From positions 4,067,248 to 4,131,247 of the forward strand of contig OY970325.1 in assembly GCA_963717145.1 (NCBI GenBank): a stretch of DNA of 64,000 nt, given 5' to 3'. The stretch is from an uncultured Armatimonadetes bacterium (GTDB lineage: Bacteria > Armatimonadota > UBA5829 > DTJY01). Positions within the stretch are counted from its first letter, which is position 1, and each line of letters begins with the position of its first letter. Position numbers and translations under genes: made by a program. A model generated the notes under the pieces. The model was not told the DNA's origin and did not search any database. It saw only the letters and a list, made by a program, of their open reading frames with translations. Of the stretch, positions 6,816 through 57,094 are shown one piece after another.

Positions 6816-9584
6816 TCAGTGATCTGGGGCGCGACTAGCGAGCCAAGCGGAAACCGATAGCATTATCCCTGCTCCCCGGGGAGTAGTTGCTCCGATTGGC
6901 GCAGCGGGGAGCGTACCGGTCTTCCTGAAGGTAACTCGCACCGCGCAGGACCCTGTAACTATAGATCCACCCAGCGGGCCCTGCGGGTCGGCTGGCCAAC
7001 TGCTCGTCGAGTACTCGCTGTAGTAGGCGCTCGAATACCAGTCCTTACACCACTCCCACACGTTGCCGGCCATGTCCTGGCAGCCGTACGGGCTGGCGCC
7101 CGAAGGGTTGACATAGCTTCCAACGGGCTTGGCGGCCGATGAGTTCATGACGTTGCACCTGTTGCCATCCCAGATGTCGCCCCACGGGTACACGTTTGGA
7201 TGCTCCGCCGGGCTAGTCGCCCAGCGGGCAGCCTTCTCCCACTGAGCCTCTGACGGCAAATGGCCGCCAGCGTAGTTGCAGAACGCTTCTGCTTCGAAGT
7301 AGCTCACCCCACCCACTGGGAGAAGTCCATTCGCGCTTGGGTTCCAGTTGGTTGGCTGCGTGATATGCCCTTGGTCACGCCAGAGTCGCCCCTCCTCAGA
7401 CCAGTATTCGTTGTTCGCGTATCCATCTGCGTCCACGAATGCTTTGAACTCGGCGTTGGTCACCTCATACTTTCCTATCCAGTAACCTGAGAGACCAACG
7501 CGGTGCTGTGGCAACTCATCGGGGTAGCTGTTTCCCTCGCTCCCGCTGTTCCCCATTAGGAACGATCCGGCTGGAACGTAGACCATTTCCCCAGGATAAT
7601 CGTCGGTCTGTCGCACCAATCGAAGCGTATTACCGCCGATGCTCATGCATGAACTGACGCCCGTCGCTTCCAGGTAGTCACCGACGACGGGTGAGAGCAC
7701 GGTGTTGCGCGTCAGAACCGTGACCGGCTCGGGGCTGCCATCGGAGATCACAAAGAAGCCGGCTCCGTAAGTCTGGACGCGACCCCAGGTCGTCACGAGC
7801 AATCCTATGTTGTTGAGTCCCCTCCCGCCGGTCACGCCGCACTGGCCGGCCCCGCTGGATGCCAGGCAGTGCCAATCCCCACCGCCCAGCGAGAGAAGGT
7901 TGATCCCCAATGGCTTTACCGATCCATAGCCGATAGGCTCGACCCAGGTCGCTTCGACGTATCGCTCTCCGTTCAGATCAGTGCGCATGGTGCCCGTGAG
8001 GTTGACGCACGTCTTGCGGGCAGCCGTAAAGCCGGAGGCAAGCACCTTAAGTCCTGCGCTTCTGTCGGCAGACTCCACATAGAAGCCGTCCGTTAGAACT
8101 GCCGTGATGATGCCACCCAGACACGTAACGGAGTCTGAGTTGGTCCGCAGTCTTGCAGCCGCGACCGAATCGGCTCGCGTACAGGTGAACGATAACTGGA
8201 ACTCCTGGCCCGCCTGCAGCGGAGGGTCATTCTTCTGCCATGGGAGCATCATGACCATATCGTCCGCGAAGTCATAGTCGCGTGCATTGCTGCCGGGTAA
8301 GGCAAGAGCGTTTGTCACTCGGAATGGCAACCAGGCGATCACCGGGTTCTCTAGCCGGGGGATAGAAGTGTTCATCTTCACGGAGAGAGTGAAACGATAC
8401 TCCTCTGGGTTCTCTGTGTGTTCATAAGTGAGTGTCTGGTCGTATAGGGCGGACTGGCAGCTGTCAAGGCGGCAGTCGTAGCCAGGATCGCCGTACAGGA
8501 CGAACTTGTCCCGATCGTACGTGATGTCCTCATCATACCCGGGCGTTTCTCGTTCGCGGTGGAATGCCAGAGCCTGGTTTCCCAGGAAGAAAGCCTCCGA
8601 CCACGTGAACCTGCCGGCCAGCGGAAAGAAATAGCTCTGTACCATGCCGCTTATCAGCCCATAGGTGTTAGTCACGATGTAGCCGCTATACTGGACCGCC
8701 CCGCCAGAATGAATCCAGCCCAGAGCGAGGCAGTTGTCTCGTTGCCCACCAAGGTCGTCCACAAGGCCCAGTAGGCAGTTCCCGCGACCGAAGTACAGCT
8801 TCGGATTCGTGGAGTTGACGTCATGTCTAGTGAGCGCGATGTCTTCGCCGTAGAGCTGTCCATGATCGCTCTTGAAGTACCCCTCACCGTCCGAATTCGG
8901 GTAGTGTAGTTGCCAGTCTAGTGGGCTAGCGTGTCCGCTCGTTATCACAATGTCCACCGGTGACGTATTGGAGTTGAGAGCATCCACGAGTGCTTGTGTG
9001 TCGTCCGCCGGTCCAGCCGGCGGGTGGCCGGCGTCGTACTTTGCGACAATTCCGCACGAGGTATCCCGAACCCACATGACGTCGCTGGCCGACTCCGAGT
9101 GGTACGTCCCAAGCTTCAGGTAGGTCTCGAGAAGGTCACCACCGGTCTTCAGCAAGCCCCGGCGCACGGTTAGCGGCTGTGCTTGGGCCATTCTCAGGGC
9201 ATCTGCCGCCGTGTAACCCGTCACGATGCCCCAGATGCAGTCGCCGTATGGGTCAGCGTCGAGAGCCCAACACAACTGATGAACAGTCTCCACGTAGACG
9301 CCGCTTAGCTCTGTTGGCTGTGCGACGAAGGCGATGTGGCGCGGCATTATGCGCGACAACCTGCTGCGCACGGTATCTGGGAAAGCTGCGCCCGTGTAGG
9401 TTACGACAAGAGCTGAGTGCTTTGCAGCCAGCGCGTCAACCACGCCGCGCCAAGCGGCGTCGCCGTAAGTGCTCTGCGAGACGCATACAGCATAGGGCTG
9501 CGGGTAGTGTTCATCCGCCAGCACATGCACGGTAGTGGCAAGCACTCCAATCACTGCGAGCATAACATACACCTGTCTCATCAT
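6816..9584 (-). CDS. secreted multidomain protein: N-terminal caspase-like (C25 gingipain-like) domain plus C-terminal FGE-sulfatase (SUMF1) domain
   Basis: Signal peptide; ITSGHASPLDW and RGNCLLG resemble the His/Cys dyad of clan CD peptidases; C-terminal 300 aa carry the FGE-sulfatase signature (YPDELPQHRV...AGNVWEWCKDWY). Confidence 0.6.
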   Translation of the reverse strand: MMRQVYVMLAVIGVLATTVHVLADEHYPQPYAVCVSQSTYGDAAWRGVVDALAAKHSALVVTYTGAAFPDTVRSRLSRIMPRHIAFVAQPTELSGVYVETVHQLCWALDADPYGDCIWGIVTGYTAADALRMAQAQPLTVRRGLLKTGGDLLETYLKLGTYHSESASDVMWVRDTSCGIVAKYDAGHPPAGPADDTQALVDALNSNTSPVDIVITSGHASPLDWQLHYPNSDGEGYFKSDHGQLYGEDIALTRHDVNSTNPKLYFGRGNCLLGLVDDLGGQRDNCLALGWIHSGGAVQYSGYIVTNTYGLISGMVQSYFFPLAGRFTWSEAFFLGNQALAFHRERETPGYDEDITYDRDKFVLYGDPGYDCRLDSCQSALYDQTLTYEHTENPEEYRFTLSVKMNTSIPRLENPVIAWLPFRVTNALALPGSNARDYDFADDMVMMLPWQKNDPPLQAGQEFQLSFTCTRADSVAAARLRTNSDSVTCLGGIITAVLTDGFYVESADRSAGLKVLASGFTAARKTCVNLTGTMRTDLNGERYVEATWVEPIGYGSVKPLGINLLSLGGGDWHCLASSGAGQCGVTGGRGLNNIGLLVTTWGRVQTYGAGFFVISDGSPEPVTVLTRNTVLSPVVGDYLEATGVSSCMSIGGNTLRLVRQTDDYPGEMVYVPAGSFLMGNSGSEGNSYPDELPQHRVGLSGYWIGKYEVTNAEFKAFVDADGYANNEYWSEEGRLWRDQGHITQPTNWNPSANGLLPVGGVSYFEAEAFCNYAGGHLPSEAQWEKAARWATSPAEHPNVYPWGDIWDGNRCNVMNSSAAKPVGSYVNPSGASPYGCQDMAGNVWEWCKDWYSSAYYSEYSTSSWPADPQGPLGGSIVTGSCAVRVTFRKTGTLPAAPIGATTPRGAGIMLSVSAWLASRAPDH

Positions 9585-12606: not shown

Positions 12607-12729
12607 GCAACCGCATGTAGTGGCCGCGCCTCCGTGCCGGCCTTCGACGTCCCATGGCCGGCACGGAGGCACGGCCACTACATGCGGTTCCGATTGTCCG
12701 AACATGGCCGGCACGGAGGCGCGGCCACT
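12607..12729. repeat. hairpin with duplicated arm between clpB start and 3' end of upstream gene
   Basis: catgtagtggccgcgcctccgtgccggcc / ggccggcacggaggcacggccactacatg inverted repeat plus a second copy of the right arm at 12701..12729. Confidence 0.6.
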
Positions 12730-12880
12730 ACGACGGCAAAGAATATGTACCCAATCGGGCCAAGCGGTCACCATGTCTATGCCTGCGCCATCATACTACT
12801 TGATGGCATTGTTGTCAAGTAGTATGACGCACGAGCACCCCAAATGGTTCCCATCTTGGCGTCCCTTGGCGACTTGGCGG

Positions 12881-14122: not shown

Positions 14123-14176
14123 CCTCCAGAATGGTTGATGGTATATGGTTCATGGTTGATGCGGGATCTCACATTG

Positions 14177-14283
14177 GTGTTTCGGGATTTGAGTGACTCT
14201 GGGAACGGAAATCCCGAAATGCGTCTCTCGTCCCGTTTCGGGATTTCCGTTCCCAGAGTCACTCAAATCCCGAAACACCAACC
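14177..14283. repeat. 107-bp near-perfect palindrome (about 45-bp arms)
   Basis: ggtgtttcgggatttgagtgactctgggaacggaaatcccgaaa ... tttcgggatttccgttcccagagtcactcaaatcccgaaacacc. Confidence 0.8.
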
Positions 14284-23183: not shown

Positions 23184-25958
23184 ATGAGAGCCGGAAATAC
23201 TCGTCCATTCTTTTTGATGCTGGCGCTGATCGTGCTGGCAGCAACAATCGCGCCGGTACTCGGCCAGCAGGCGGAGGTCCGGGAGACCGTCCTGCCGAAC
23301 GGCCTGAAGGTGCTCACGAAGGAAGTCCATGCCGTCCCGGTCGTCAGCTTCCAGGTCTGGTACAAGGTCGGCTCTCGGAATGAGCAGCTCGGAAAGACCG
23401 GACTGTCTCACCTGCTGGAACACATGCAGTTCAAAGGCACGAAGTCGCTCGGGAAGGGCGAGATCGACCGCCTGATCCAGAAGAATGGCGGCATCAGCAA
23501 CGCGACCACCTGGAAGGACCGGACCCACTACTACGAGACGTTCTCCAGTGACAGGCTCGAGCTGGCGATGCGCATCGAATCCGACCGCATGGTGAACAGC
23601 CGGATGGACGCCAAGGAACTCGAGTCGGAGAAGGTCGTAGTTCGCTCGGAACTCGAAGGCGGCGAGAACAGCCCGGATTCGCTGATCTACTATGAGTTGT
23701 ATGCCACCGCGTTCAAGGCACATCCCTACCAGTGGCCGACGATCGGCTGGGTCGCGGACCTGGGCTCGATCACCCGGGACGACCTGTACAGCTACTACAA
23801 GACTTACTATCAGCCGAACAATGCGACGGTCGTGATCGTCGGCGACTTCCAGGCCGAGAAGGCGCTGGCACTCGTGAACAAGTACTTCGGCAAGATCAAG
23901 AAGGGCGACGATCCACCCAAGGTCACAGCTAAGGAGCCGGTCCAGTTCGGTGGACGGCGCGCGATCGTCAGCAGGGCGGGCAACGCGTCCCGAGTGATGA
24001 TGGGCTTCAAGACCCCGGCGGTCGGCGATCCGGACAACTATCCGCTCGATGTGCTGGAGATCGTGCTGAGCAGTGGGACGAGCAGCCGCCTGTATAAGGC
24101 GCTCGTGGACAAGCAACTTGCGACCGAAGCCTGGGCGAGCGCGACCGTCGGCAAGGACCCCGATCTATTCCTCCTCGGAGGAACCGCCCGCGACGGCGTG
24201 AAGATCGAGGATGTCGAGGCCGCGCTCCTGGCCGAGGTCGAGAAGATCAAGACCGAGGGCATCACGGACCAGGAACTTCAGAAGGCGCTCAACCAACTCG
24301 AGGCGTCGTTTGTCTACGCCAATGACAGCGTCTCCGCGCAGGCCCGGCAACTCGGAGAGTTCGAGACCATGTACTCCTGGCGGTACATCGTGGAATACCT
24401 GTCGAACGCGCAGAAGGTGAGCAGGGAAGACGTAGGTCGTGTGGCCCGGAAGTACTTCACCGAGATGGGCCGGACCGTCGTGACGTTCGTTCCTGAGGAG
24501 TCAGGAGTCAGGAGTCAGAAGTCAGAAGTCGGCAGGGAGCAGATGGCACTGCCCTTTGAGAGGTTGGCAGCTTACAAACCGGATGTGGAGACACGGAGAG
24601 TGGGAGAACGGGAGAGTGGGAGAGTGGGAGACAAACCCATACTATCCGCCGAGGAATCCGAAATCCGCAGTCCGACATCCGCAATTCAGCCGAAGCGGGT
24701 GGTGCTCGATAACGGTATGGTCGTCATCATCTACCCGAACCGGAGCAATGCGACGATCGCCGTGACCGGAAGCCTGGGCGCCGGTTCGATGCTCGATCCG
24801 ACGGGCAAGGCCGGAGTCGCGCCGGTGACCGCCGGACTGCTCATGAAGGGCACGAAAACCCGCACCGCCGATCAGCTCGCGGCCGAGAGGGACTTTCTCG
24901 CCATCCGCATGGGCACGGGCGCGGACACCGAGTCAGCCTCGTTCAGCACGTACTCGCTCTCGAAGCACTTCGACAAATCGCTCGAACTGCTGTCCGACGT
25001 GCTGCGCAACCCGACATTCCCAGCGGACGAACTCGAGAAGCTGAGGATGAGACGCCTCTCCGCCATCAAGCAGGAGCAGGACGACCCGCAATCGCTCGCG
25101 TTCCGGAAGTTCTACGGCACGGTCTACCCGAAGGGGCATCCGTACCATCAGAATTCGATCGAAGAGGAAGCGGCGAACACCTCCGCGATCACAAGGGATG
25201 ACATCACCGACTTCTACGGCAAGTACTATGGCCCGCAGACCGCGATCATCGTGGTCGTCGGCGATGTCGATGAGCAGACGGCGCTGGCAAAGATCAAGCA
25301 GTATTTCGGCGACTGGAAGCCGACCGGTCCCGCCGTAGTCCCGAAGCAAGTTCGGGACCTGATCCCGGACACGCCGCTTCAGGCGTCCATCGTGAAGGAG
25401 ATCATCCAGGTGCCGGACAAGTCGCAGGCCGACGTGGTCCTCGGCTATGCGAGCACTCTGAAGCGGTCCGATCCGGACTTCTATGTCGCGACGATTATGA
25501 ACTACATCCTCGGCGGCGGCGGAGCGCTCGGCAGCCGGTTCGGGAACGTCATCCGCGACGAGATGGGCCTCGTCTACACCGTCTACAGCGGCTTCGACTC
25601 GACGCTCGGCGCCGGGCCGTGGTACGCTTACCTCGGCACGAACCCGGAGAACATAGACAAGGCAGTCACTACGCTGCTCGACCAGATGAAGCTCATGCGC
25701 GACAAGGGTGCGACGAAGGTGGAGGTCCAGGAGGCGCTGGACTACATCACGGGCTCGTTCGCGGCGCGCCGACTCGAGACGAACAGCGCGATCGCGGATA
25801 CCCTGCACGCCGCTGAGTTCTTCGGCCTGGGGATCGATTACATTCAGAAATACCAGAGCCTCTATCGGGCGGTGACACTCGATCAGGTGAACGCCGCCGC
25901 AAGGAAGTACCTGCACACGGATCAGTACACGATCGTGGAAGCAGGAACGATCAAGTAG
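23184..25958 (+). CDS. tandem M16 (pitrilysin/insulinase) family zinc peptidase
   Basis: HLLEHMQFKGT inverted zinc motif; two M16 modules joined by a low-complexity linker encoded by tandem repeats. Confidence 0.85.
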   Translation: MRAGNTRPFFLMLALIVLAATIAPVLGQQAEVRETVLPNGLKVLTKEVHAVPVVSFQVWYKVGSRNEQLGKTGLSHLLEHMQFKGTKSLGKGEIDRLIQKNGGISNATTWKDRTHYYETFSSDRLELAMRIESDRMVNSRMDAKELESEKVVVRSELEGGENSPDSLIYYELYATAFKAHPYQWPTIGWVADLGSITRDDLYSYYKTYYQPNNATVVIVGDFQAEKALALVNKYFGKIKKGDDPPKVTAKEPVQFGGRRAIVSRAGNASRVMMGFKTPAVGDPDNYPLDVLEIVLSSGTSSRLYKALVDKQLATEAWASATVGKDPDLFLLGGTARDGVKIEDVEAALLAEVEKIKTEGITDQELQKALNQLEASFVYANDSVSAQARQLGEFETMYSWRYIVEYLSNAQKVSREDVGRVARKYFTEMGRTVVTFVPEESGVRSQKSEVGREQMALPFERLAAYKPDVETRRVGERESGRVGDKPILSAEESEIRSPTSAIQPKRVVLDNGMVVIIYPNRSNATIAVTGSLGAGSMLDPTGKAGVAPVTAGLLMKGTKTRTADQLAAERDFLAIRMGTGADTESASFSTYSLSKHFDKSLELLSDVLRNPTFPADELEKLRMRRLSAIKQEQDDPQSLAFRKFYGTVYPKGHPYHQNSIEEEAANTSAITRDDITDFYGKYYGPQTAIIVVVGDVDEQTALAKIKQYFGDWKPTGPAVVPKQVRDLIPDTPLQASIVKEIIQVPDKSQADVVLGYASTLKRSDPDFYVATIMNYILGGGGALGSRFGNVIRDEMGLVYTVYSGFDSTLGAGPWYAYLGTNPENIDKAVTTLLDQMKLMRDKGATKVEVQEALDYITGSFAARRLETNSAIADTLHAAEFFGLGIDYIQKYQSLYRAVTLDQVNAAARKYLHTDQYTIVEAGTIK

Positions 25959-26147
25959 GGAATGGTTTATGGTTTGTGGTTGATGGCTGATGGGGAACCG
26001 GTTCCCATTCCCCATTCCCCATTGACCATTAACCATCAGCCATCAACCATTCCCCGTCAACCATTCCCCCGGGTTTGGCGTATAACAGGCGGGGGGTAAA
26101 CTGCGCGCGGAGGCTCCAACGATGCCGCCGTGCTTTGGAGGTGTGTC

Positions 26148-28033: not shown

Positions 28034-28341
28034 GGTTGTAGGGGCGTGCCTTGTGCCGCCCGCGACACCGAACCGGGCGGCACAAGGCACGCCCCTACAA
28101 CCGGTTCATCTGGAGACGCCTCCTACAACAGTGATCCCCGGCACATGATCCGCTCTGCCTCCGCCAAGTTGGTCCCGGGTGTTGATGCCGAGCACCTCGT
28201 CCGGCCCGCACGATACCGATGACGCGCGCATCCCCTGCGATTATAACTCCTGCACTGCCCAGCGACAAGCGCCGACAGTTTCGCGCACCGACATGCCGGG
28301 TATGAGAACAAGGGTATGGCGCAGATGACTGCGCCGACAGG

Positions 28342-29560: not shown

Positions 29561-29640
29561 CAGACCGAGGTGTTGGGTGTTGGGTGTTAGTCGTCGGGTC
29601 CGGATCCCCAACACCCAACACCTACAACCCAACACCGTCC

Positions 29641-30735: not shown

Positions 30736-30824
30736 GCCATCAGTATAGGATGTGGTCGGGACGAGGTCAAGCGGAACCTTCGGAGTGCGGTGGCTTGACA
30801 CCGCCTTGACGGTTTGACGTGGCC

Positions 30825-32363
30825 CTAGAGCGGTGTCAAGCCACCGCACTCCGAAGCGAGAAAGTCCGAGTCGAGGGTGTAGACGCCTGTGACGGAGACG
30901 ATGCTGTCGAGCTGTACCGCGCCGGCCCAGCGGACGGGGACGCCGGTCTCACCATCCGAGAGCCGGAAGCCGCCTGGGAGGATCTCGGTCACACGGCCCC
31001 ACGTCTTCGTCCGGAGGCCGATCATCCTGTTCACTCTCGTGAGCGTCGAGCCGAGCGGCTCAGGGATGTGCCTCCCCGCGGCATGGAGTGTGCTTGCTGA
31101 GGCCGAAAGGATCTTCGCGCCGCCTGGATTCGTGCTCACAGTACCGGTCACGCTCGCCAGGAGATCGCCGACGTTGTATCCGTTCAGCCCCTGGACCGCG
31201 ATCGCCGCCGAGCGGTCGGGCGATTGCAGATAGGTCGTGACGCCGTCGCTGCAGCTAACGACCAGCCGGTTGATCCTGGCCGCGGTTCCATCCGGCAGGA
31301 GCTTCGCGATCCCGATCCGATTGAGGTTGTACGGCGAATCGAGCGGATAGCATCCGACCCCGGCGCACGGCGAATCGAACCGCAGCCGGAACTCATCGCG
31401 GTCGGGCATAAGGAAACGCGGATCGGCGGAGAAGTTGCCCCAGGCCGGCGCCGCCGGTTTGATCATTCCACCGAGATCGCCGCCCACGTTCCCATACAGG
31501 TCGCAGTGGCTGTATGTCAGTGCGGAGGACGTACTCCCGCCGAAGAGACCTCCTCCGACCGGCGCGGAGTTGAACGCTATGATGCAGTAGTTCAGGATCA
31601 TCGGCGAGCCGTAGTAGTCATAGCCGCCGCCGCCACTGACCTCGGCGCTGTTGTAGGCGATCGTGCAGTTCTCGAAATCAGGGCCGGCATGATAGGGTCC
31701 GAATACGCCGCCGCCGCTCCCTGTGGCATGATTGCGGACGATGAGGCAGTTTCGAACGACGGGATAGGAGTGGTACTCGACGTATATGCCCCCGCCGCTC
31801 ACGGCCTTGTTGTGGATCATCTCGCAGTTGATGATGTCGCCGTAGGAGTACTTGCCCATGTAGATTCCGCCGCCCCGATTGGTCGCGCGGCAGTTCTCGA
31901 ACCGGCAGTTGATGATGGTCGCGGTGGTCGTGATCTGGCAGCGAATGCCCCCGCCGTCGTCCGCCTTGCCGTTCCTGATGGTGATACCTTCGATGGTCAC
32001 GGAGACTTGTGTTGGGACGTCGATACCTCGTCCCGCACCGCCCGGATCGATGATCGTCGGGAACGCCCCGCCCAGACGCTGGCTCAGCGAGGTCTCGTAG
32101 CCGAGGAACCCGCCGTACAGCTTGCTGTACTGGGTCATGGTGACCGATTCCCGGTAGGTCCCGGCTGCGATCCAGTAATCCGAGCCGGTGCCTGTCGCGC
32201 TGATGGCCTGCCCGATTCCTGTGTACGCGGTCGCCCACGAGGTCCCATTATGTATGGGACCAGGCGCATCGGCATCGACGTAGACGACCGTCGCCCCATG
32301 AGCGGCTGAGATGCCCAACAGGCAGAGGAGAAGTGCTATGGTTATCCGTTTGGACATGGACAT
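30825..32363 (-). CDS. secreted right-handed parallel beta-helix repeat protein
   Basis: Signal peptide; repeated GGGI/NC...N rungs typical of the pectate-lyase fold. Confidence 0.6.
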   Translation of the reverse strand: MSMSKRITIALLLCLLGISAAHGATVVYVDADAPGPIHNGTSWATAYTGIGQAISATGTGSDYWIAAGTYRESVTMTQYSKLYGGFLGYETSLSQRLGGAFPTIIDPGGAGRGIDVPTQVSVTIEGITIRNGKADDGGGIRCQITTTATIINCRFENCRATNRGGGIYMGKYSYGDIINCEMIHNKAVSGGGIYVEYHSYPVVRNCLIVRNHATGSGGGVFGPYHAGPDFENCTIAYNSAEVSGGGGYDYYGSPMILNYCIIAFNSAPVGGGLFGGSTSSALTYSHCDLYGNVGGDLGGMIKPAAPAWGNFSADPRFLMPDRDEFRLRFDSPCAGVGCYPLDSPYNLNRIGIAKLLPDGTAARINRLVVSCSDGVTTYLQSPDRSAAIAVQGLNGYNVGDLLASVTGTVSTNPGGAKILSASASTLHAAGRHIPEPLGSTLTRVNRMIGLRTKTWGRVTEILPGGFRLSDGETGVPVRWAGAVQLDSIVSVTGVYTLDSDFLASECGGLTPL

Positions 32364-42930: not shown

Positions 42931-43114
42931 GTTTGCGGCGGAAGGGGCTGACAAAGCACATTCTATGGTACAATGTCATCGAGAATGGCCTGGTTCCCGA
43001 ACTGTCACCGTGAGGTGCGCGTGTCCGCCGTTGGCGGAATAGGGGCCGGGCCGAACCTTTCCGGGGGGCCGGCTTCAGGCATGAGGCCGGCCTTATTCAT
43101 TTTCTACCCGGTTT

Positions 43115-43195: not shown

Positions 43196-44212
43196 ATGGA
43201 CAAGCTGAGAATCGCCATGATCGGAGCGGGTGACTGCGCATCGGCCGCGCACATGCCGTCGTTCGCCGGGAACCCGAAGGTGGAGGTCGTCGCAATCGCG
43301 GACCCGGATGCCCAAGCCGCGCAGTCCCTCGCCGAGAGATTCTCTATCGACAGGGCGGTGGGTGACTACCACGAGTTGCTCCAGGACGGATCGATCTCGG
43401 CCGTTGACATCTGCGCGCCGCACGACCTGCATCACCCGATCACGATGGACGCCCTGAACGCCGGGAAGCATGTCATCCTCGACAAGCCGATCGCCATGAA
43501 CCTCGAGGAGGCCGACGCCATGATCTCGGCGGCTCGGGATGCCGGGCTGAAGCTGCTCGTCGTGCTGAACCAGCGGTTCCTCCCGGCGCATCGGAAGATC
43601 AGGGAGATGATCGAGGGCGGCCACATGGGGAAGCCGTTCCTCATGAACGCGATCCTCGCCGGCGACGTGCTCGCGCGCATGAACGATCCGCACGATTGGA
43701 AGGGCGCATCGGACCGATCGGGCGGCGCGTTCTTCGACACCGGCACTCATATCGTCGACTTGATGCACTACTGGTTCGGGCCGCCGACCGCCGTGAGCGC
43801 GACCCTCAGGCGGTTGGTCGTGACCCCGGACAACAAGGGCGACGACAACGCGGCCGTGACGTTCGAATATGACGGTATGATCGCGAACGTGATCGTCTCG
43901 TACACGATGAACAACGAGCCGTGGAGCGAAAAGAAGTTCATCTACGGCACGGGCGGCGACATCGCGATGATCAGCGAGGCCGTCGTGCCGATGTTCTACG
44001 TCCACGACAACGTGCCGGAGATGGTCGATGTCGAGCATCGAGACGACTGGTGGAGCTGGTCGATCGACCTCGCGCTCGGGCATTTCGTGGACTGCATACT
44101 GGAGGGCGCCGAGCCGCTCGTCACCGCCGAGGACGCCCGCGCCGCCCTGAAGTCGATCCTGGCGGCATATCGGAGCGCCGGAGAAGGACGACGGGAGATG
44201 GTTAATGGCTGA
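43196..44212 (+). CDS. Gfo/Idh/MocA-family NAD(P)-dependent oxidoreductase
   Basis: IAMIGAGDCASAAHMP Rossmann N-terminus; EKP-like core. Confidence 0.85.
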   Translation: MDKLRIAMIGAGDCASAAHMPSFAGNPKVEVVAIADPDAQAAQSLAERFSIDRAVGDYHELLQDGSISAVDICAPHDLHHPITMDALNAGKHVILDKPIAMNLEEADAMISAARDAGLKLLVVLNQRFLPAHRKIREMIEGGHMGKPFLMNAILAGDVLARMNDPHDWKGASDRSGGAFFDTGTHIVDLMHYWFGPPTAVSATLRRLVVTPDNKGDDNAAVTFEYDGMIANVIVSYTMNNEPWSEKKFIYGTGGDIAMISEAVVPMFYVHDNVPEMVDVEHRDDWWSWSIDLALGHFVDCILEGAEPLVTAEDARAALKSILAAYRSAGEGRREMVNG

Positions 44213-44276
44213 TGGTTAATGGTTAATGGCAGACGGACCTGCATCCCCCATCAACCATTCCCCATTAACCATCAAC

Positions 44277-45348
44277 TGTCAAGTCCCACCACGTTGTGAA
44301 CGGTAGTTCAGTAAGTCGGTAGGCTCTTTGATAAACAGATCTGGTCTTTGCGCGTACCAGTCGCAGACCTTCTCATAGGGTGTCTTGCCACCGATCGCGC
44401 TGTGCTGTCTCCTTAGATTGTAGATGGTCAGCCACTGGTGGAGTCCATCTATCAACTCCGGATATCCAGGATATCTGTGCATCTTGTACGTGCCCTCCTG
44501 GATCAGTCCGTTCATGCGTTCCACCAGACCGTTGGTCTTTGGTGTATACGGCCGGGTGAGCCTGTGTTCAATACCACAGGCTGAGCATACTTCATCAAAG
44601 AAGTGAGGTCTCTTCGCCGGACTGCCCCAACGGCTCCAATTGGCCAGAGTGAACTCTCTACCGTTGTCTGTCAGGATCTTGTGGATCATGAACGGATAGA
44701 ACCACATGCACAGTCCAAGGAAGCCCACTGCGGATTCCTTGGTTAGGTTGTCGTACACCTGGAGGAAGGCTAGCCTTGTTGCTCTGTCTACCGCAACGAA
44801 GCAATACTTCCTCTTGCCCCCGATCTTGGGCAGGTAGAAACAGTCTATGTGAAGGTATCCAGGCAGATACTCTTTGAACTTGCCTGGACTTTCTCTCTTT
44901 TCTTTTTGGTACTGGGGGAGTCTGCTCACCCCTTTTCTGCTCAGTAAGCGATGTATACTGGCGCGTTCTGCATTCGGCAGAACTGTGACTACTGCACGCA
45001 CCAGTGCATCGAGTGCTAGACCTTTGTCCCGGAGCGAGAGGATGATCTCCTCCTCTTCGGGGCTGAATGCATAATGGATCTTCCTGGGCCGACTGCTGCG
45101 GTCTTGCTGGTCACCCCGGGCCTTCCATTTGCAGACTGTTGCCGGCGATACATGGCAGATATCTGCGAGCTTTCTGCAGCTCTTGGGACTCTGCCTGAAA
45201 AACCGCCGTTGCTTCATATTGCTGGTTGCGTTAGAATGGATCTGCATGCGAGTGGTCTCCTTTTTTGGTTTGGCGATCATCAAAGAGACTACCGCATGCA
45301 CCTCCTTCTTTTCAACCCACGGTGTTCATAATGTCATGAGACTGGACA
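44277..45348. mobile_element. IS481-family insertion sequence with a 6-bp ATCAAC target-site duplication
   Basis: TIRs tgtcaagtcccaccacgttgtgaac / gttcataatgtcatgagactggaca; flanking ATCAAC at 44271..44276 and 45349..45354; inserted into a heptamer-repeat hairpin. Confidence 0.75.
44279..45301 (-). CDS. IS481-family transposase (DDE/rve integrase core)
   Basis: DNGREF ... TRPYTPKTNGLVERMN catalytic region; N-terminal HTH. Confidence 0.85.
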   Translation of the reverse strand: MHAVVSLMIAKPKKETTRMQIHSNATSNMKQRRFFRQSPKSCRKLADICHVSPATVCKWKARGDQQDRSSRPRKIHYAFSPEEEEIILSLRDKGLALDALVRAVVTVLPNAERASIHRLLSRKGVSRLPQYQKEKRESPGKFKEYLPGYLHIDCFYLPKIGGKRKYCFVAVDRATRLAFLQVYDNLTKESAVGFLGLCMWFYPFMIHKILTDNGREFTLANWSRWGSPAKRPHFFDEVCSACGIEHRLTRPYTPKTNGLVERMNGLIQEGTYKMHRYPGYPELIDGLHQWLTIYNLRRQHSAIGGKTPYEKVCDWYAQRPDLFIKEPTDLLNYRSQRGGT

Positions 45349-47979: not shown

Positions 47980-48822
47980 CTATCCTTTCACATGGCTATG
48001 GAGTCCGGGGAGGAAGAAGGTGACCCCTATGTAGGTGATCAGCACGCAGAGGAATCCGATCGCGAGCAGGCGGTTCGACCACTTCCCGCGCCAGCCCTGG
48101 ACCATACGCACGTGCAGGTATGCCGCATAGACGAGCCACGTGATCAGCGACGCGGTCTCCTTCGGGTCCCATTCCCAATACTTCCCCCACGCCGTCTGTG
48201 CCCAGAGCGCGCCCGTGATGATCCCCAGCGTGAGCATCGGGAACCCGAACGCGACCATCTTGTACGCCAGGCCGTCGAGCGAGTCGAGCGAGGGCAGATG
48301 CCGCTGCAAGACGGTGATCCGCTTGGCCTTCAGCATCTTCTCCTGGAGCATGTACCCGAGCGCCGCGCCGAACGCCAGCGCGAAACTCGCGTATGCCGCC
48401 AGACTGCTGATGATGTGGATCGCGGCCCAGCGGTTTCCGAGCATCTGGCCGAGCAAGGCGTCGCCGGCGTTCAACTCCGGTGAGAGCGACAGGGAGACAT
48501 AGAACCCGAGCGCGATCAACGCGAGCATGCTGGCGAAGACGCTCAGCGCGGTGTTCTCGGACCTGCGTTGCGCGGTGAGATAGATCGCGGTCAGTACCCA
48601 CGCGACAAAGGTGAGCGATTCGACCATCGTCCCGAACGGCAGCCGATGCTGTTCGATCCCGTGTGCGACGATCGCCAGGGTGAGCAGACCGAGCCCCCCG
48701 ATCCCTACCACAGTCGCCGCGCGCTTGACCCGGCCCGCCTTAGACGTGACACTCCCGACGTGCAGCACCACCGAGACCGCATACACTACGAGCGTGATCA
48801 GGAACAGCACGTGGCTATACAT
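47980..48822 (-). CDS. ccsA: cytochrome c biogenesis protein CcsA/ResC-like (haem-handling WWD protein)
   Basis: WGKYWEWDPKE tryptophan-rich motif; multiple TM helices. Confidence 0.75.
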   Translation of the reverse strand: MYSHVLFLITLVVYAVSVVLHVGSVTSKAGRVKRAATVVGIGGLGLLTLAIVAHGIEQHRLPFGTMVESLTFVAWVLTAIYLTAQRRSENTALSVFASMLALIALGFYVSLSLSPELNAGDALLGQMLGNRWAAIHIISSLAAYASFALAFGAALGYMLQEKMLKAKRITVLQRHLPSLDSLDGLAYKMVAFGFPMLTLGIITGALWAQTAWGKYWEWDPKETASLITWLVYAAYLHVRMVQGWRGKWSNRLLAIGFLCVLITYIGVTFFLPGLHSHVKG

Positions 48823-50203
48823 CGCGGTCGGCCTCCTTTTCGGTCGGGCATATTCCGAACGCGTCGCAGATCGTGTCGAGCCGGGTGGAGACATCGTCCC
48901 CCGCGTACTCCTTGATCCGGATCATCGGCTGGTGGCAAATCTTGTTCACGATCGAGCGAGTCGTCTGGTTGACGGCCTCGATCTCCTCCTCGGACAGGTT
49001 CGGCAGCCGGGCGCGGAGTCTCTCCAACTCCGACTGCCTGATCTCCTCGAACTTGTCTCTGAGCGCGGTGATGACCGGCACGGCGTCCAACGTGCGGAAC
49101 CAATCCATGAACTTCTCGACCTCCTCGCGGACGATCACCTCCACCTTCGCGATCTCGGCATCCCGCTCCTCCGCGTCGGCGGCGACCACCGCCTGCAGGT
49201 CGTCGATGTTGTACAGGAAAACGTCGTCCAGTTCACCGACCTCGGGTTCGACATCCCTGGGCACTGCGAGGTCGATGATGAAGACCGGCCGGCCCCGACG
49301 GACCCGCATCGCCTGCGAGACCATATCCCGCGTGACGATCGGCTTCCCGGCGGCGGTCGAGGTGATGACGATGTCCGATCTCTGCATGGCCGACTGTATC
49401 TCATCGAACTTGAGAGGCCTTCCGCCGAACCGCTCGGCGAGATCGACCGCCCGCTCGTATGTCCGATTCGCGACGAGCACGGAGGTCACTCCCGCTGATG
49501 AGAGATGAGTCGCAGTCAGTTCGCCCATCTTTCCCGCGCCAACGATCAGGACCGTGCGGCCTTTGAGCGGGTCGAAGATCGAGCGCGCGAGTTGGACCGC
49601 CGCGTATCCTACGGAGAACGCGCCTCGACCGATCTCAGTCTCGGTGCGGGAGCGCTTCCCGACGGTGATCGCCTGCTGGAATAGCGCATTGAGCACCGGG
49701 CCGGTCGCTCCCGCCTCGGATGCCGCCGCATAAGCCGATTTCACCTGCCCGAGAACCTGCGCCTCCCCGAGGATCATGGAGTCGATCCCCGAAGCGACGC
49801 GAAAGAGGTGCTCGATCGCCTTGTGGCCGGAAAGGGAGTAGAGATGCGGCTCGAACGACTCGCGGGCGAGGCCACTGCGCTCGGCGATGGCCTCGATGAT
49901 GTCGTCGGCTGCCCTCACCCCCGACCCCTCTCCCGGAGGGCGAGGGGAGACTCCACCCTCTACCTTCGGTTGTTCCCCCTCGCCCTCCGGGAGAGGGGTC
50001 GGGGGTGAGGGTCGACTCTGTAAGGTCGTCCAGGCGTAGATCTCGGTCCGATTGCAGGTCGAGAGGACTACGGCCTCCCTCAACCCTTCGTTCCTCAGTA
50101 GAGCATCGAGGAACGCCTTCGGGTCGCTCTCGGGCATGCAGAGTCGCTCGCGGATCTCGACCGGAGCGGTCACGTGGTTCAGGCCTATGACTACCAGATG
50201 CAC
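48815..50203 (-). CDS. hemA: glutamyl-tRNA reductase with a 33-aa in-frame palindromic insertion
   Basis: LSTCNRTEIYA active-site region; NADP-binding domain; inserted low-complexity segment PSPPTPLPEGEGEQPKVEGGVSPRPPGEGSGVR. Confidence 0.9.
   Translation of the reverse strand: MHLVVIGLNHVTAPVEIRERLCMPESDPKAFLDALLRNEGLREAVVLSTCNRTEIYAWTTLQSRPSPPTPLPEGEGEQPKVEGGVSPRPPGEGSGVRAADDIIEAIAERSGLARESFEPHLYSLSGHKAIEHLFRVASGIDSMILGEAQVLGQVKSAYAAASEAGATGPVLNALFQQAITVGKRSRTETEIGRGAFSVGYAAVQLARSIFDPLKGRTVLIVGAGKMGELTATHLSSAGVTSVLVANRTYERAVDLAERFGGRPLKFDEIQSAMQRSDIVITSTAAGKPIVTRDMVSQAMRVRRGRPVFIIDLAVPRDVEPEVGELDDVFLYNIDDLQAVVAADAEERDAEIAKVEVIVREEVEKFMDWFRTLDAVPVITALRDKFEEIRQSELERLRARLPNLSEEEIEAVNQTTRSIVNKICHQPMIRIKEYAGDDVSTRLDTICDAFGICPTEKEADRDV
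49912..50010. repeat. 99-bp perfect palindrome (36-bp arms, 27-nt loop) inside the hemA coding frame
   Basis: ccctcacccccgacccctctcccggagggcgagggg ... cccctcgccctccgggagaggggtcgggggtgaggg; 99 = 33 codons. Confidence 0.9.
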
Positions 50204-50818: not shown

Positions 50819-50886
50819 GGTTGATGGTCGATGGCTGATGGTTGATGGGGATTCGGGACGTTAACCATCAGCCATCAACCATTCCC

Positions 50887-51708: not shown

Positions 51709-51774
51709 ATCATCTCCCATATGGAGTGCGGAAGCGGAGTCCTCATCAGCCTCCGCACTCCACGGCAATCCGTC

Positions 51775-56985: not shown

Positions 56986-57094
56986 ACCCGCTAGTCCTGA
57001 GTGCGCCTCTGGGCGTGTATCGAAGGACGGCCTACGGAGTGCCACAAGGCCGTCCTTCGATACACGCCCAGAGGCGCACTCAGGACTAGCGGGT
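56986..57094. repeat. 109-bp near-perfect palindrome downstream of hemB
   Basis: ccgctagtcctgagtgcgcctctgggcgtgtatcgaaggacggcc ... ggccgtccttcgatacacgcccagaggcgcactcaggactagcgg. Confidence 0.8.

Follow-up and report, generated by a model that had tools for sequence, protein, structure and literature searches.

The hemA gene of an uncultured Armatimonadetes bacterium, which encodes glutamyl-tRNA reductase (GluTR), carries a long perfect palindrome within its coding sequence and in frame with it. The gene lies in a 64,000-nt (64-kb) stretch of contig OY970325.1, the whole of which is referred to below as the window. We propose, with a probability that we put at roughly 0.78, that the palindrome is an inverted doublet of BoxC/PIT/TMECO repeat units (triplex-motif units, hereafter TM units), organized much like the REP doublets known as REPINs. 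It would have been inserted as foreign repeat DNA, moved by a hairpin mechanism and tolerated by the protein, at a site where such elements land recurrently. The three closest hemA orthologues (proteins P0001, P0002 and P0003, encoded at L001, L002 and L003) each contain a perfect palindrome at the same loop, and each palindrome has a different sequence.

Palindromes at one loop of hemA

The coordinates of the hemA palindrome and its parts are listed in Table 1. The two arms are 100% complementary and, with the spacer, span 100 nt. None of 100 dinucleotide-preserving shuffles equalled this inverted repeat, and the region as RNA has a predicted folding energy of -103.7 kcal/mol (z = -12.2). The original prediction, made from the sequence alone, was right about the perfect 36-bp arms; the 27-nt loop, the 99-bp length, the end at 50010 and the insert of exactly 33 codons that it gave are corrected here to a 28-nt spacer, 100 nt, an end at 50011 and the net insertion of Table 1. 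The Pro/Gly/Glu-rich peptide that it had read from the insert, PSPPTPLPEGEGEQPKVEGGVSPRPPGEGSGVR, is predicted to be translated in frame and starts 10 residues after the TCNRTE segment; the tryptic peptide from the insert is VEGGVSPRPPGEGSGVR.

Table 1. Features of the hemA insertion in the window, and palindromes at the same loop in the window and its relatives.
Feature	Position	Strand	Arm (nt)	Spacer (nt)	Sequence or basis
hemA (glutamyl-tRNA reductase) open reading frame, 462 amino acids, intact and in frame across the palindrome	48815..50203	-			Open reading frame list, Pfam, PDB
Net insertion, 102 nt = 34 codons (residues 65-98), between Arg64 codon CGA and Ala codon GCC	49910..50011	-			Codon comparison with empty L138, L139, L140; protein alignment
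Arm 1, one BoxC/PIT/TM unit, CCCTCACCCC-CGA-CCCCTCTCCC-GGA-GGGCGAGGGG	49912..49947	.	36		C-rich strand on +
Unique spacer, encodes EQPKVEGGV in hemA frame	49948..49975	.		28	Sequence
Arm 2, exact reverse complement of arm 1, same variable linker included	49976..50011	.	36		G-rich strand on +
Singlet REP-like hairpin GGAGTGCGGAGGC...CCGCTTCCGCACTCC of the L002 doublet family, cytochrome c-ccsA spacer	51723..51761	-			Family comparison
Palindrome, window			36	28	TM unit
Palindrome, L001 (P0001)			27	31	CAAAAAAGG-N9-CCTTTTTTG, A/T-rich hairpin
Palindrome, L002 (P0002)			41	17	GGAGTGCGGAAGC..., REP-like
Palindrome, L003 (P0003)			36	14	TM-like variant CCCCCTCCCCC-TG-CCCCCTCCC-TCAA-GGGGAGGGGG

The DNA of three close relatives without the insert (L138, L139 and L140) served as empty-site references. 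The interval between the conserved flanking codons is 54 nt in all three, versus 156 nt in the window. In the hemA sense, the insert is followed by a GCC GAC GAC (Ala-Asp-Asp) stretch. The insertion exceeds the palindrome by 2 nt (CA on the hemA sense strand), and its boundary is ambiguous. At the protein level, the spacing between the TCNRTE and HLFRVxxG motifs is 43 residues in 87 of the best 120 homologues and 41 in one, with 29 of the 120 falling outside the motif pattern. Longer spacings occur only in P0001 (65), P0002 (74), P0003 (74) and the protein of the window (77). The insert is thus present in 4 of 121 HemA proteins, the window and its three closest relatives, while 116 of the 120 homologues are without it, which bears out the prediction that the segment is lineage-specific.

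The product of hemA contains all three expected Pfam domains (GlutR_N, Shikimate_DH and GlutR_dimer) and is similar to the solved GluTR structures 4n7r and 1gpj, both by sequence search and as the best structural matches of its predicted model. That AlphaFold2 model, built from 75 sequences, has a mean pLDDT (predicted local distance difference test) of 87.5. Residues 60-93 are coil, and the mean pLDDT drops to 64, 51 and 42 across residues 61-90, between a well-predicted strand (53-59) and helix (94-110). A HMMER alignment to Arabidopsis GluTR places the insert exactly between chain residues 86 and 87. The loop placement that had been proposed is therefore supported by the predicted structure, where the insert falls in the strand-to-helix connection of the catalytic domain. 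According to this model, the HemA insert is a lineage-specific surface loop, predicted to be disordered, that leaves the rest of the fold unharmed. The gene belongs to a sirC-hemA-hemX operon, and the palindrome is located 190 nt into the coding region. An identical 462-residue protein is on record from a 5,366,867-bp NCBI/ENA contig, so the source genome is closed or nearly closed. The organism names of the HemA homologues likewise point to Armatimonadota.

The net inserts in L001, L002 and L003 amount to 66, 93 and 93 nt (versus 102 nt in the window); every size is a multiple of three, and all are free of stop codons. The four filled sites come from the assemblies of the window, Logan SRR21358430, JGI 3300032516 (L002) and GCA_017993055.1 (L003). 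Of the 140 base pairs in the four stems taken together, not one is a mismatch or a G-T pair, which speaks for an origin from repeats at the DNA level and not for compensatory evolution of an RNA. No conserved peptide is shared by the four inserts. The pattern that would have spoken against an inserted element, namely relatives with the same 33 residues as a conserved, non-palindromic segment, is not what the alignments contain: the relatives' insert at this site is in each case a different perfect palindrome.

The insertion points of the window, L002 and L001 differ by 3-15 nt. The inserts of the window and L003 have an identical junction, between an Arg codon and GCC GAC GAY. In a neighbour-joining tree of HemA, calculated with the insert removed, the window joins P0001 and then P0002; the insert-less P0004-P0007 are sister to this group, and P0003 lies outside both. 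Given this topology, any scenario involves at least two gain or loss events.

Identity and distribution of the repeat units

The inner 23 nt of the arm (CCCCTCTCCCGGAGGGCGAGGGG) was used as the query of a scan over one genome per GTDB species. This core was found in at least 119 stretches from about 10 phyla, with hosts among the Beta- and Gammaproteobacteria, Geobacterales, Myxococcota, Chloroflexota, Planctomycetota, Nitrospirota, Cyanobacteriota, Acidobacteriota and others. Nearly all of the matches listed are preceded by CCCTCACCCC and a variable trinucleotide, which defines a 36-nt unit, CCCTCACCCC-N3-CCCCTCTCCCGGAGGGCGAGGGG. Among the matches listed, the full 36-mer of the window recurs without change in L035, L044, L045, L054 and L073, a Dehalococcoidia chromosome and Proteobacteria included. 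The same 23-mer has only 3 matches among 2.9 million viral contigs, and so there is no sign that phages carry TM units.

BoxC/PIT/TM repeats have been known since the 1990s and are among the most widely distributed short bacterial repeats. To our knowledge, neither a function nor a mobility mechanism has been established for them. The published TMECO pattern is CCCTCNCCC-N3-6-GGGNGAGGG-N3-GGGNGAGGG, with 3610 copies in 262 proteobacterial genomes (Holder et al. 2015, PMC4666352). The 23 copies of E. coli K-12 are reported in that work as "always located intergenically"; five inverted pairs are known in E. coli, each consisting of a type A and a type B unit, and TMECO loci are unusually variable between strains. 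Promoter or terminator activity was not seen in the published tests, and intrastrand triplex formation was proven in vitro for E. coli sequences only, the authors having found no in vivo evidence (PMC4666352).

The hemA arm follows the same order of C-block, loop, G-block, loop and G-block as these repeats (Bachellier et al.; Hoyne et al. 2000; Holder et al. 2015, PMC4666352). Its blocks are nearly the same (CCCTCGCCC / GGGAGAGGG / GGGTGAGGG), the conserved central mismatch included, and the 36-nt unit, the inverted pairing and the very wide taxonomic spread are likewise shared. The arm misses the strict TMECO pattern by 2 nt; it fits with a 5-nt second loop (GTCGG), where the published form has N3, or with 10-11-nt stems. 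The variant with the 5-nt second loop is the common form among the at least 119 loci in other phyla. In global alignments with the E. coli copies TM10, TM12, TM16 and TM18 (from the published Table 1), the arm shows no differences other than shifts of one base within G/C runs and a small number of substitutions. By blastn, arm 2 has unannotated counterparts on the chromosomes of 528 E. coli genomes, ~87% identical over 45 nt. The block composition of the arm fits a purine-motif triplex. No Rfam family was assigned to the palindrome, which is covered only by sub-threshold generic miRNA-hairpin matches. As judged from these sequence comparisons, the hemA palindrome is an inverted doublet of two identical TM units, which agree even in the normally variable linker CGA and are separated by a unique spacer. 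It differs from the E. coli copies in its location inside a coding sequence, where it is predicted to be translated, in its identical arms, and in its host, since the Armatimonadota are outside the original 262 proteobacterial genomes.

REPINs (Bertels & Rainey 2011, PMC3116915) are REP doublets that form hairpins and are mobilised by RAYT transposases. The hemA element resembles them in its two inverted conserved units, its less conserved spacer, its length of ~100 nt and its single long hairpin. However, the TM unit is without the GTAG or CGTC tag, and REPINs are described as extragenic. The full population pattern of a REPIN, with identical arms, diverged spacers, singlets and doublets, is displayed by the hemA element of L002. 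In a metagenome scan, a 33-nt piece of the L002 arm matches 15 contigs of the same JGI sample, representing at least 13 loci, many of them at contig ends. Some copies of this family form inverted doublets, in which the arms are identical and the spacers are related though diverged; the others are singlet hairpins. Only the hemA copy is deep inside a gene. The singlet in the window (Table 1) has a positional orthologue with a different loop at L142 8414-8451, on the contig of L001, between a multihaem cytochrome c gene and ccsA. Its presence on both contigs indicates that the REP-like family of L002 is common to the clade. Local re-centring or concerted evolution of the palindrome, considered for central bases shared by the window and L002, was dropped as a candidate, since the "shared" part of L002 is the invariant arm of this multicopy family.

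The original prediction had likened the palindrome to the Rickettsia palindromic elements (RPEs), which are ~150-bp elements with conserved peptides of their own (Ogata et al. 2000, 2002, as summarised in PMC10969869). The likeness is one of behaviour (in frame, in a surface loop, from a dispersed repeat), and the TM unit, like the RPEs of that summary, sits in the reading frame of unrelated housekeeping genes, at places that the fold can accept, and recurs in many genes. It does not extend to membership, as the arms are BoxC/PIT/TMECO units; the repeat family, the length (a 36-nt unit and 100-nt doublet versus ~150 bp) and the taxonomic range (many phyla versus one genus) are all different. 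ERIC and other enterobacterial small mobile sequences found inside genes (Delihas 2007, as cited in PMC10969869) are, like TM, normally intergenic repeats that occasionally fuse with genes in frame. They are a different repeat family. At hemA there are also orthologues in which the site is cleanly empty, and a single site has been occupied repeatedly. In comparison with a classical miniature inverted-repeat transposable element, the hemA element is inverted repeat throughout, apart from the 2 nt (CA) beyond the palindrome, and no clear target-site duplication accompanies it.

In-frame copies elsewhere were sought by screening 130 TM copies in the retrieved loci for long open reading frames spanning them, ten of which were checked with Pfam. 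Each of the ten proved to be a genuine gene, in which Pfam domains flank or surround the unit. The unit lies in the linker between the pterin- and B12-binding domains of MetH, ahead of the tRNA-binding domain of MetRS, and between D3 and the RID domain of Mfd; the remaining hosts are two HsdR proteins (L050 and L112), three DNA methyltransferases including MmeI, and two planctomycete PSD1-domain proteins. In a third HsdR copy (L094), outside the Pfam-checked set, the translated sequence has the same junction. The TM unit is open in five of its six reading frames, the sole stop being in the GGGG-TGA-GGG frame. It encodes the peptides PSPxxPLPEGEG, PSPSGRGxGGEG and PRPPGEGxGVR, the first and third of which are the readings of the two hemA arms. 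In-frame entry into coding regions appears from these genes to be a general, though minority, behaviour of the TM repeat. In the literature open to our search, we found no paper describing in-frame gene colonisation by BoxC/PIT/TM repeats, which is absence of evidence only. A protein search with a 41-residue query containing the insert peptide yielded no candidate with three 5-residue words in common, a result that says nothing about other translated TM units. The earlier suggestion of a mobile hairpin-repeat family of this genome, tolerated in essential genes, can be kept as far as the repeat is dispersed and in frame in other essential genes, as confirmed with Pfam. It cannot be kept as a family of this genome, because the other long hairpins of the window are unrelated in sequence and a second TM unit is absent from the 64 kb.

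The clean comparison of filled and empty sites in an essential gene, together with the units that other phyla have in frame in MetH, MetRS, Mfd and proteins of restriction-modification, shows that the TM unit behaves like a discrete, insertable and translation-tolerant module. In this it is a cross-phylum analogue of the Rickettsia RPEs. Two aspects seem to us noteworthy: the TM units of several phyla that lie within genes and are apparently translated, and the single hemA loop in which perfect palindromes of unrelated sequence have followed one another. The four different palindromes, which in four related genomes fall within a 12-nt stretch of hemA, provide a tractable natural system for studying how palindromic repeats choose or replace their sites. 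For annotation, Pro/Gly-rich low-complexity inserts with the three peptide patterns given above become recognisable as repeat-derived.

Several of the TM-bearing loci have features of their own. Restriction-modification genes account for 5 of the 10 Pfam-confirmed in-frame hosts (HsdR, HsdM-type and N6/N4 methylases, and MmeI; L112, L050, L010, L004 and L064). Near-identical HsdR proteins in a member of the Desulfurivibrionaceae (L050 6769-6804) and in Sulfuritalea (L094 546-581; translation only) have the unit at the same place, which suggests that TM units may spread along with mobile defence genes. The HsdR of L112 (3195-3400) holds a tandem TM array within its ATPase domain. A betaproteobacterial MetRS (L109 3403-6054) has a DUF559/REase-like domain (residues 639-744) and the TM unit (residue 756) between its catalytic core and tRNA-binding domain. 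In Geomonas paludis (L013 4390-4824), a tandem TM array with a 137-bp period alternates with a second TM-like inverted unit; the arrays of L022 and L112 have periods of ~42-45 bp.

Mode of insertion and competing explanations

In the reading that we favour, a foreign repeat doublet would have inserted into a short loop that joins a strand to a helix, at the boundary of an Arg and an Ala codon, moving by a hairpin or single-stranded DNA mechanism of the REP/REPIN kind. The insert would have no functional part in HemA and would be a passenger that the protein tolerates, in essence selfish or neutral, because the four inserts have no conserved peptide in common and the great majority of homologues (116/120) do without one. 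The open frames of the TM unit and its flexible Pro/Gly-rich peptides would account for this tolerance, with selection on the essential gene retaining only in-frame, stop-free outcomes. From the frame kept in four different inserts, we infer that read-through translation of the insert is under selection.

The hemA loop of this clade would accordingly be a recurrent landing site, where doublets of different families land beside the resident palindrome or replace it. Recurrence at one site cannot be random, because neither the 64 kb of the window nor the 21 kb around hemA in L001 and in L003 yielded a further intragenic palindrome; targeting of the site, or replacement of a resident palindrome, is implied. 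Since the arms come from different families, vertical inheritance followed by drift alone cannot account for them. Two models can be envisaged. A new element could insert at or beside the existing hairpin, the older one being lost by deletion, or the hairpin could provoke a break that is repaired by copying other hairpin repeats. Either model is compatible with the junctions, which differ slightly among the window, L002 and L001 and coincide between the window and L003.

More tentatively, the loop may be a heritable landing pad, at which palindromic doublets with no relation to each other (TM, REP-like, A/T hairpin) are drawn to a palindrome already in place, or overwrite it, by structure-directed insertion or by repair of hairpin-provoked breaks. 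We consider this possible but doubtful. If it is true, the site should at all times hold a perfect palindrome of recent origin, with a sequence that is renewed more quickly than the gene itself changes. It would also be the first clean empty-versus-filled evidence that BoxC/PIT/TM units move discretely and colonise coding regions across phyla.

Several observations weigh against insertion of a mobile TM doublet as proposed above. The window contains no further copy of the hemA arm at up to 3 or up to 6 mismatches, and no second TM unit by a block-pattern search; neither the L001 nor the L003 element has a second copy within 21 kb of contig. No target-site duplication is clearly visible when the hemA junctions are compared with the empty sites. 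The homo-doublet form is atypical for the TM family, since no perfect homo-doublet occurs among the at least 119 TM loci listed from other genomes and E. coli pairs always combine A with B. No transposase or RAYT was identified, though the genes of the window were not scanned for Y1 transposases, and published work on TMECO/PIT found no link of the motif to transposons or other mobile elements (PMC4666352). The exact junction shared by the window and L003, both with TM-like elements, speaks for a rival reading in which one ancient insertion was kept.

In that alternative, concerted evolution kept the arms of a single old insert perfect, whether through template switching inside the palindrome, quasipalindrome correction or gene conversion from copies elsewhere in the genome, while their sequences drifted or were overwritten, and P0004-P0007 lost the insert precisely. 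In its favour, besides the common junction, the clade of the window, L001 and L002 is filled throughout, L003 lies outside the insert-less clade, so that two events are needed in any case, and four independent hits are improbable where intragenic palindromes are otherwise rare. We nevertheless judge it unlikely. The arms come from different dispersed families, between which drift cannot lead, so that foreign repeat DNA must at the least have replaced the resident elements; the window arm is exactly the cross-phylum master 36-mer, as expected of a young copy, and the insertion points of the window, L002 and L001 lie 3-15 nt apart. Another explanation invokes selection for the hairpin itself as a cis-acting structure, such as an mRNA stabiliser, a pause or processing site in the sirC-hemA-hemX operon, or a DNA structural signal, for which any strong hairpin would serve. 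REP elements are known as mRNA stabilisers. A strong perfect hairpin does occupy the same position in four lineages, its predicted RNA stem is very stable in the window, and the orthologous ccsA-sirC spacer also holds different hairpins in different genomes. The probability of this explanation is nevertheless low, as most homologues, including the sister lineage P0004-P0007, have no insert, the 140 stem pairs include no G-U, unlike RNA structures maintained by compensation, and the arms are copies of dispersed repeats. In addition, ribosomes would unwind a hairpin so far inside the coding region, and PIT/TMECO units gave negative results in promoter and terminator tests (PMC4666352).

Membership in the RPE family has hardly any probability: the insert behaves as an RPE would, as an in-frame palindromic repeat at a surface position of a housekeeping gene, but its host is an armatimonadote and its sequence is that of a BoxC/PIT/TM unit, the exclusion being based on identity to this other family. 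Equally negligible is an assembly or sequencing artefact. Chimeric reads can produce long perfect palindromes through spurious inverted duplication, but a perfect palindrome stands in frame at this site in every one of four independent assemblies, the arms match repeats in hundreds of other genomes, and the source protein is on record from a 5.37-Mb contig.

Other hairpins and neighbouring features

The window contains further long, perfect hairpins of unique sequence at 56986-57094, 14174-14281, 28034-28102, 30778-30856 and 12609-12731, with arms of 48, 46, 29, 27 and 26 nt, respectively. All five appear just outside long open reading frames. Those at 28034-28102 and 12609-12731 contain GTAG, the tag typical of RAYT-associated REPs. 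A unit of the hairpin with 48-nt arms (56986-57094), CCGTCCTTCGATACACGC...GCACTCAGGACT, recurs in L003, a distant relative, within an inverted pair that is imperfect (6935-7061) and apparently at a non-orthologous place. This unit may represent a second dispersed palindromic family across these Armatimonadota.

Imperfect hairpins with arms of tandem heptamers (e.g. GGTTGAT GGCTGAT) are located in the window at 25958-26068, 44190-44281, 50824-50882 and 29568-29636, and in the relatives at L001 2292-2383 and 6027-6098 and at L002 688-767 and 2289-2353. In the orthologous ccsA-sirC spacer, the heptamer hairpin differs from genome to genome.

The sole Rfam family in the window is the DUF3800-IX RNA (RF02968) at 42987-43056 on the + strand, which scores above the gathering score (58 bits, E = 5.5e-10). 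In the genome of L003 (GCA_017993055.1; L141 12302-21380), hemX is followed immediately on its 3' side by a gene of 468 residues with a weak HNH match and then by Mu-like phage genes (portal, gpT capsid), all of which are absent from the synteny of the window.

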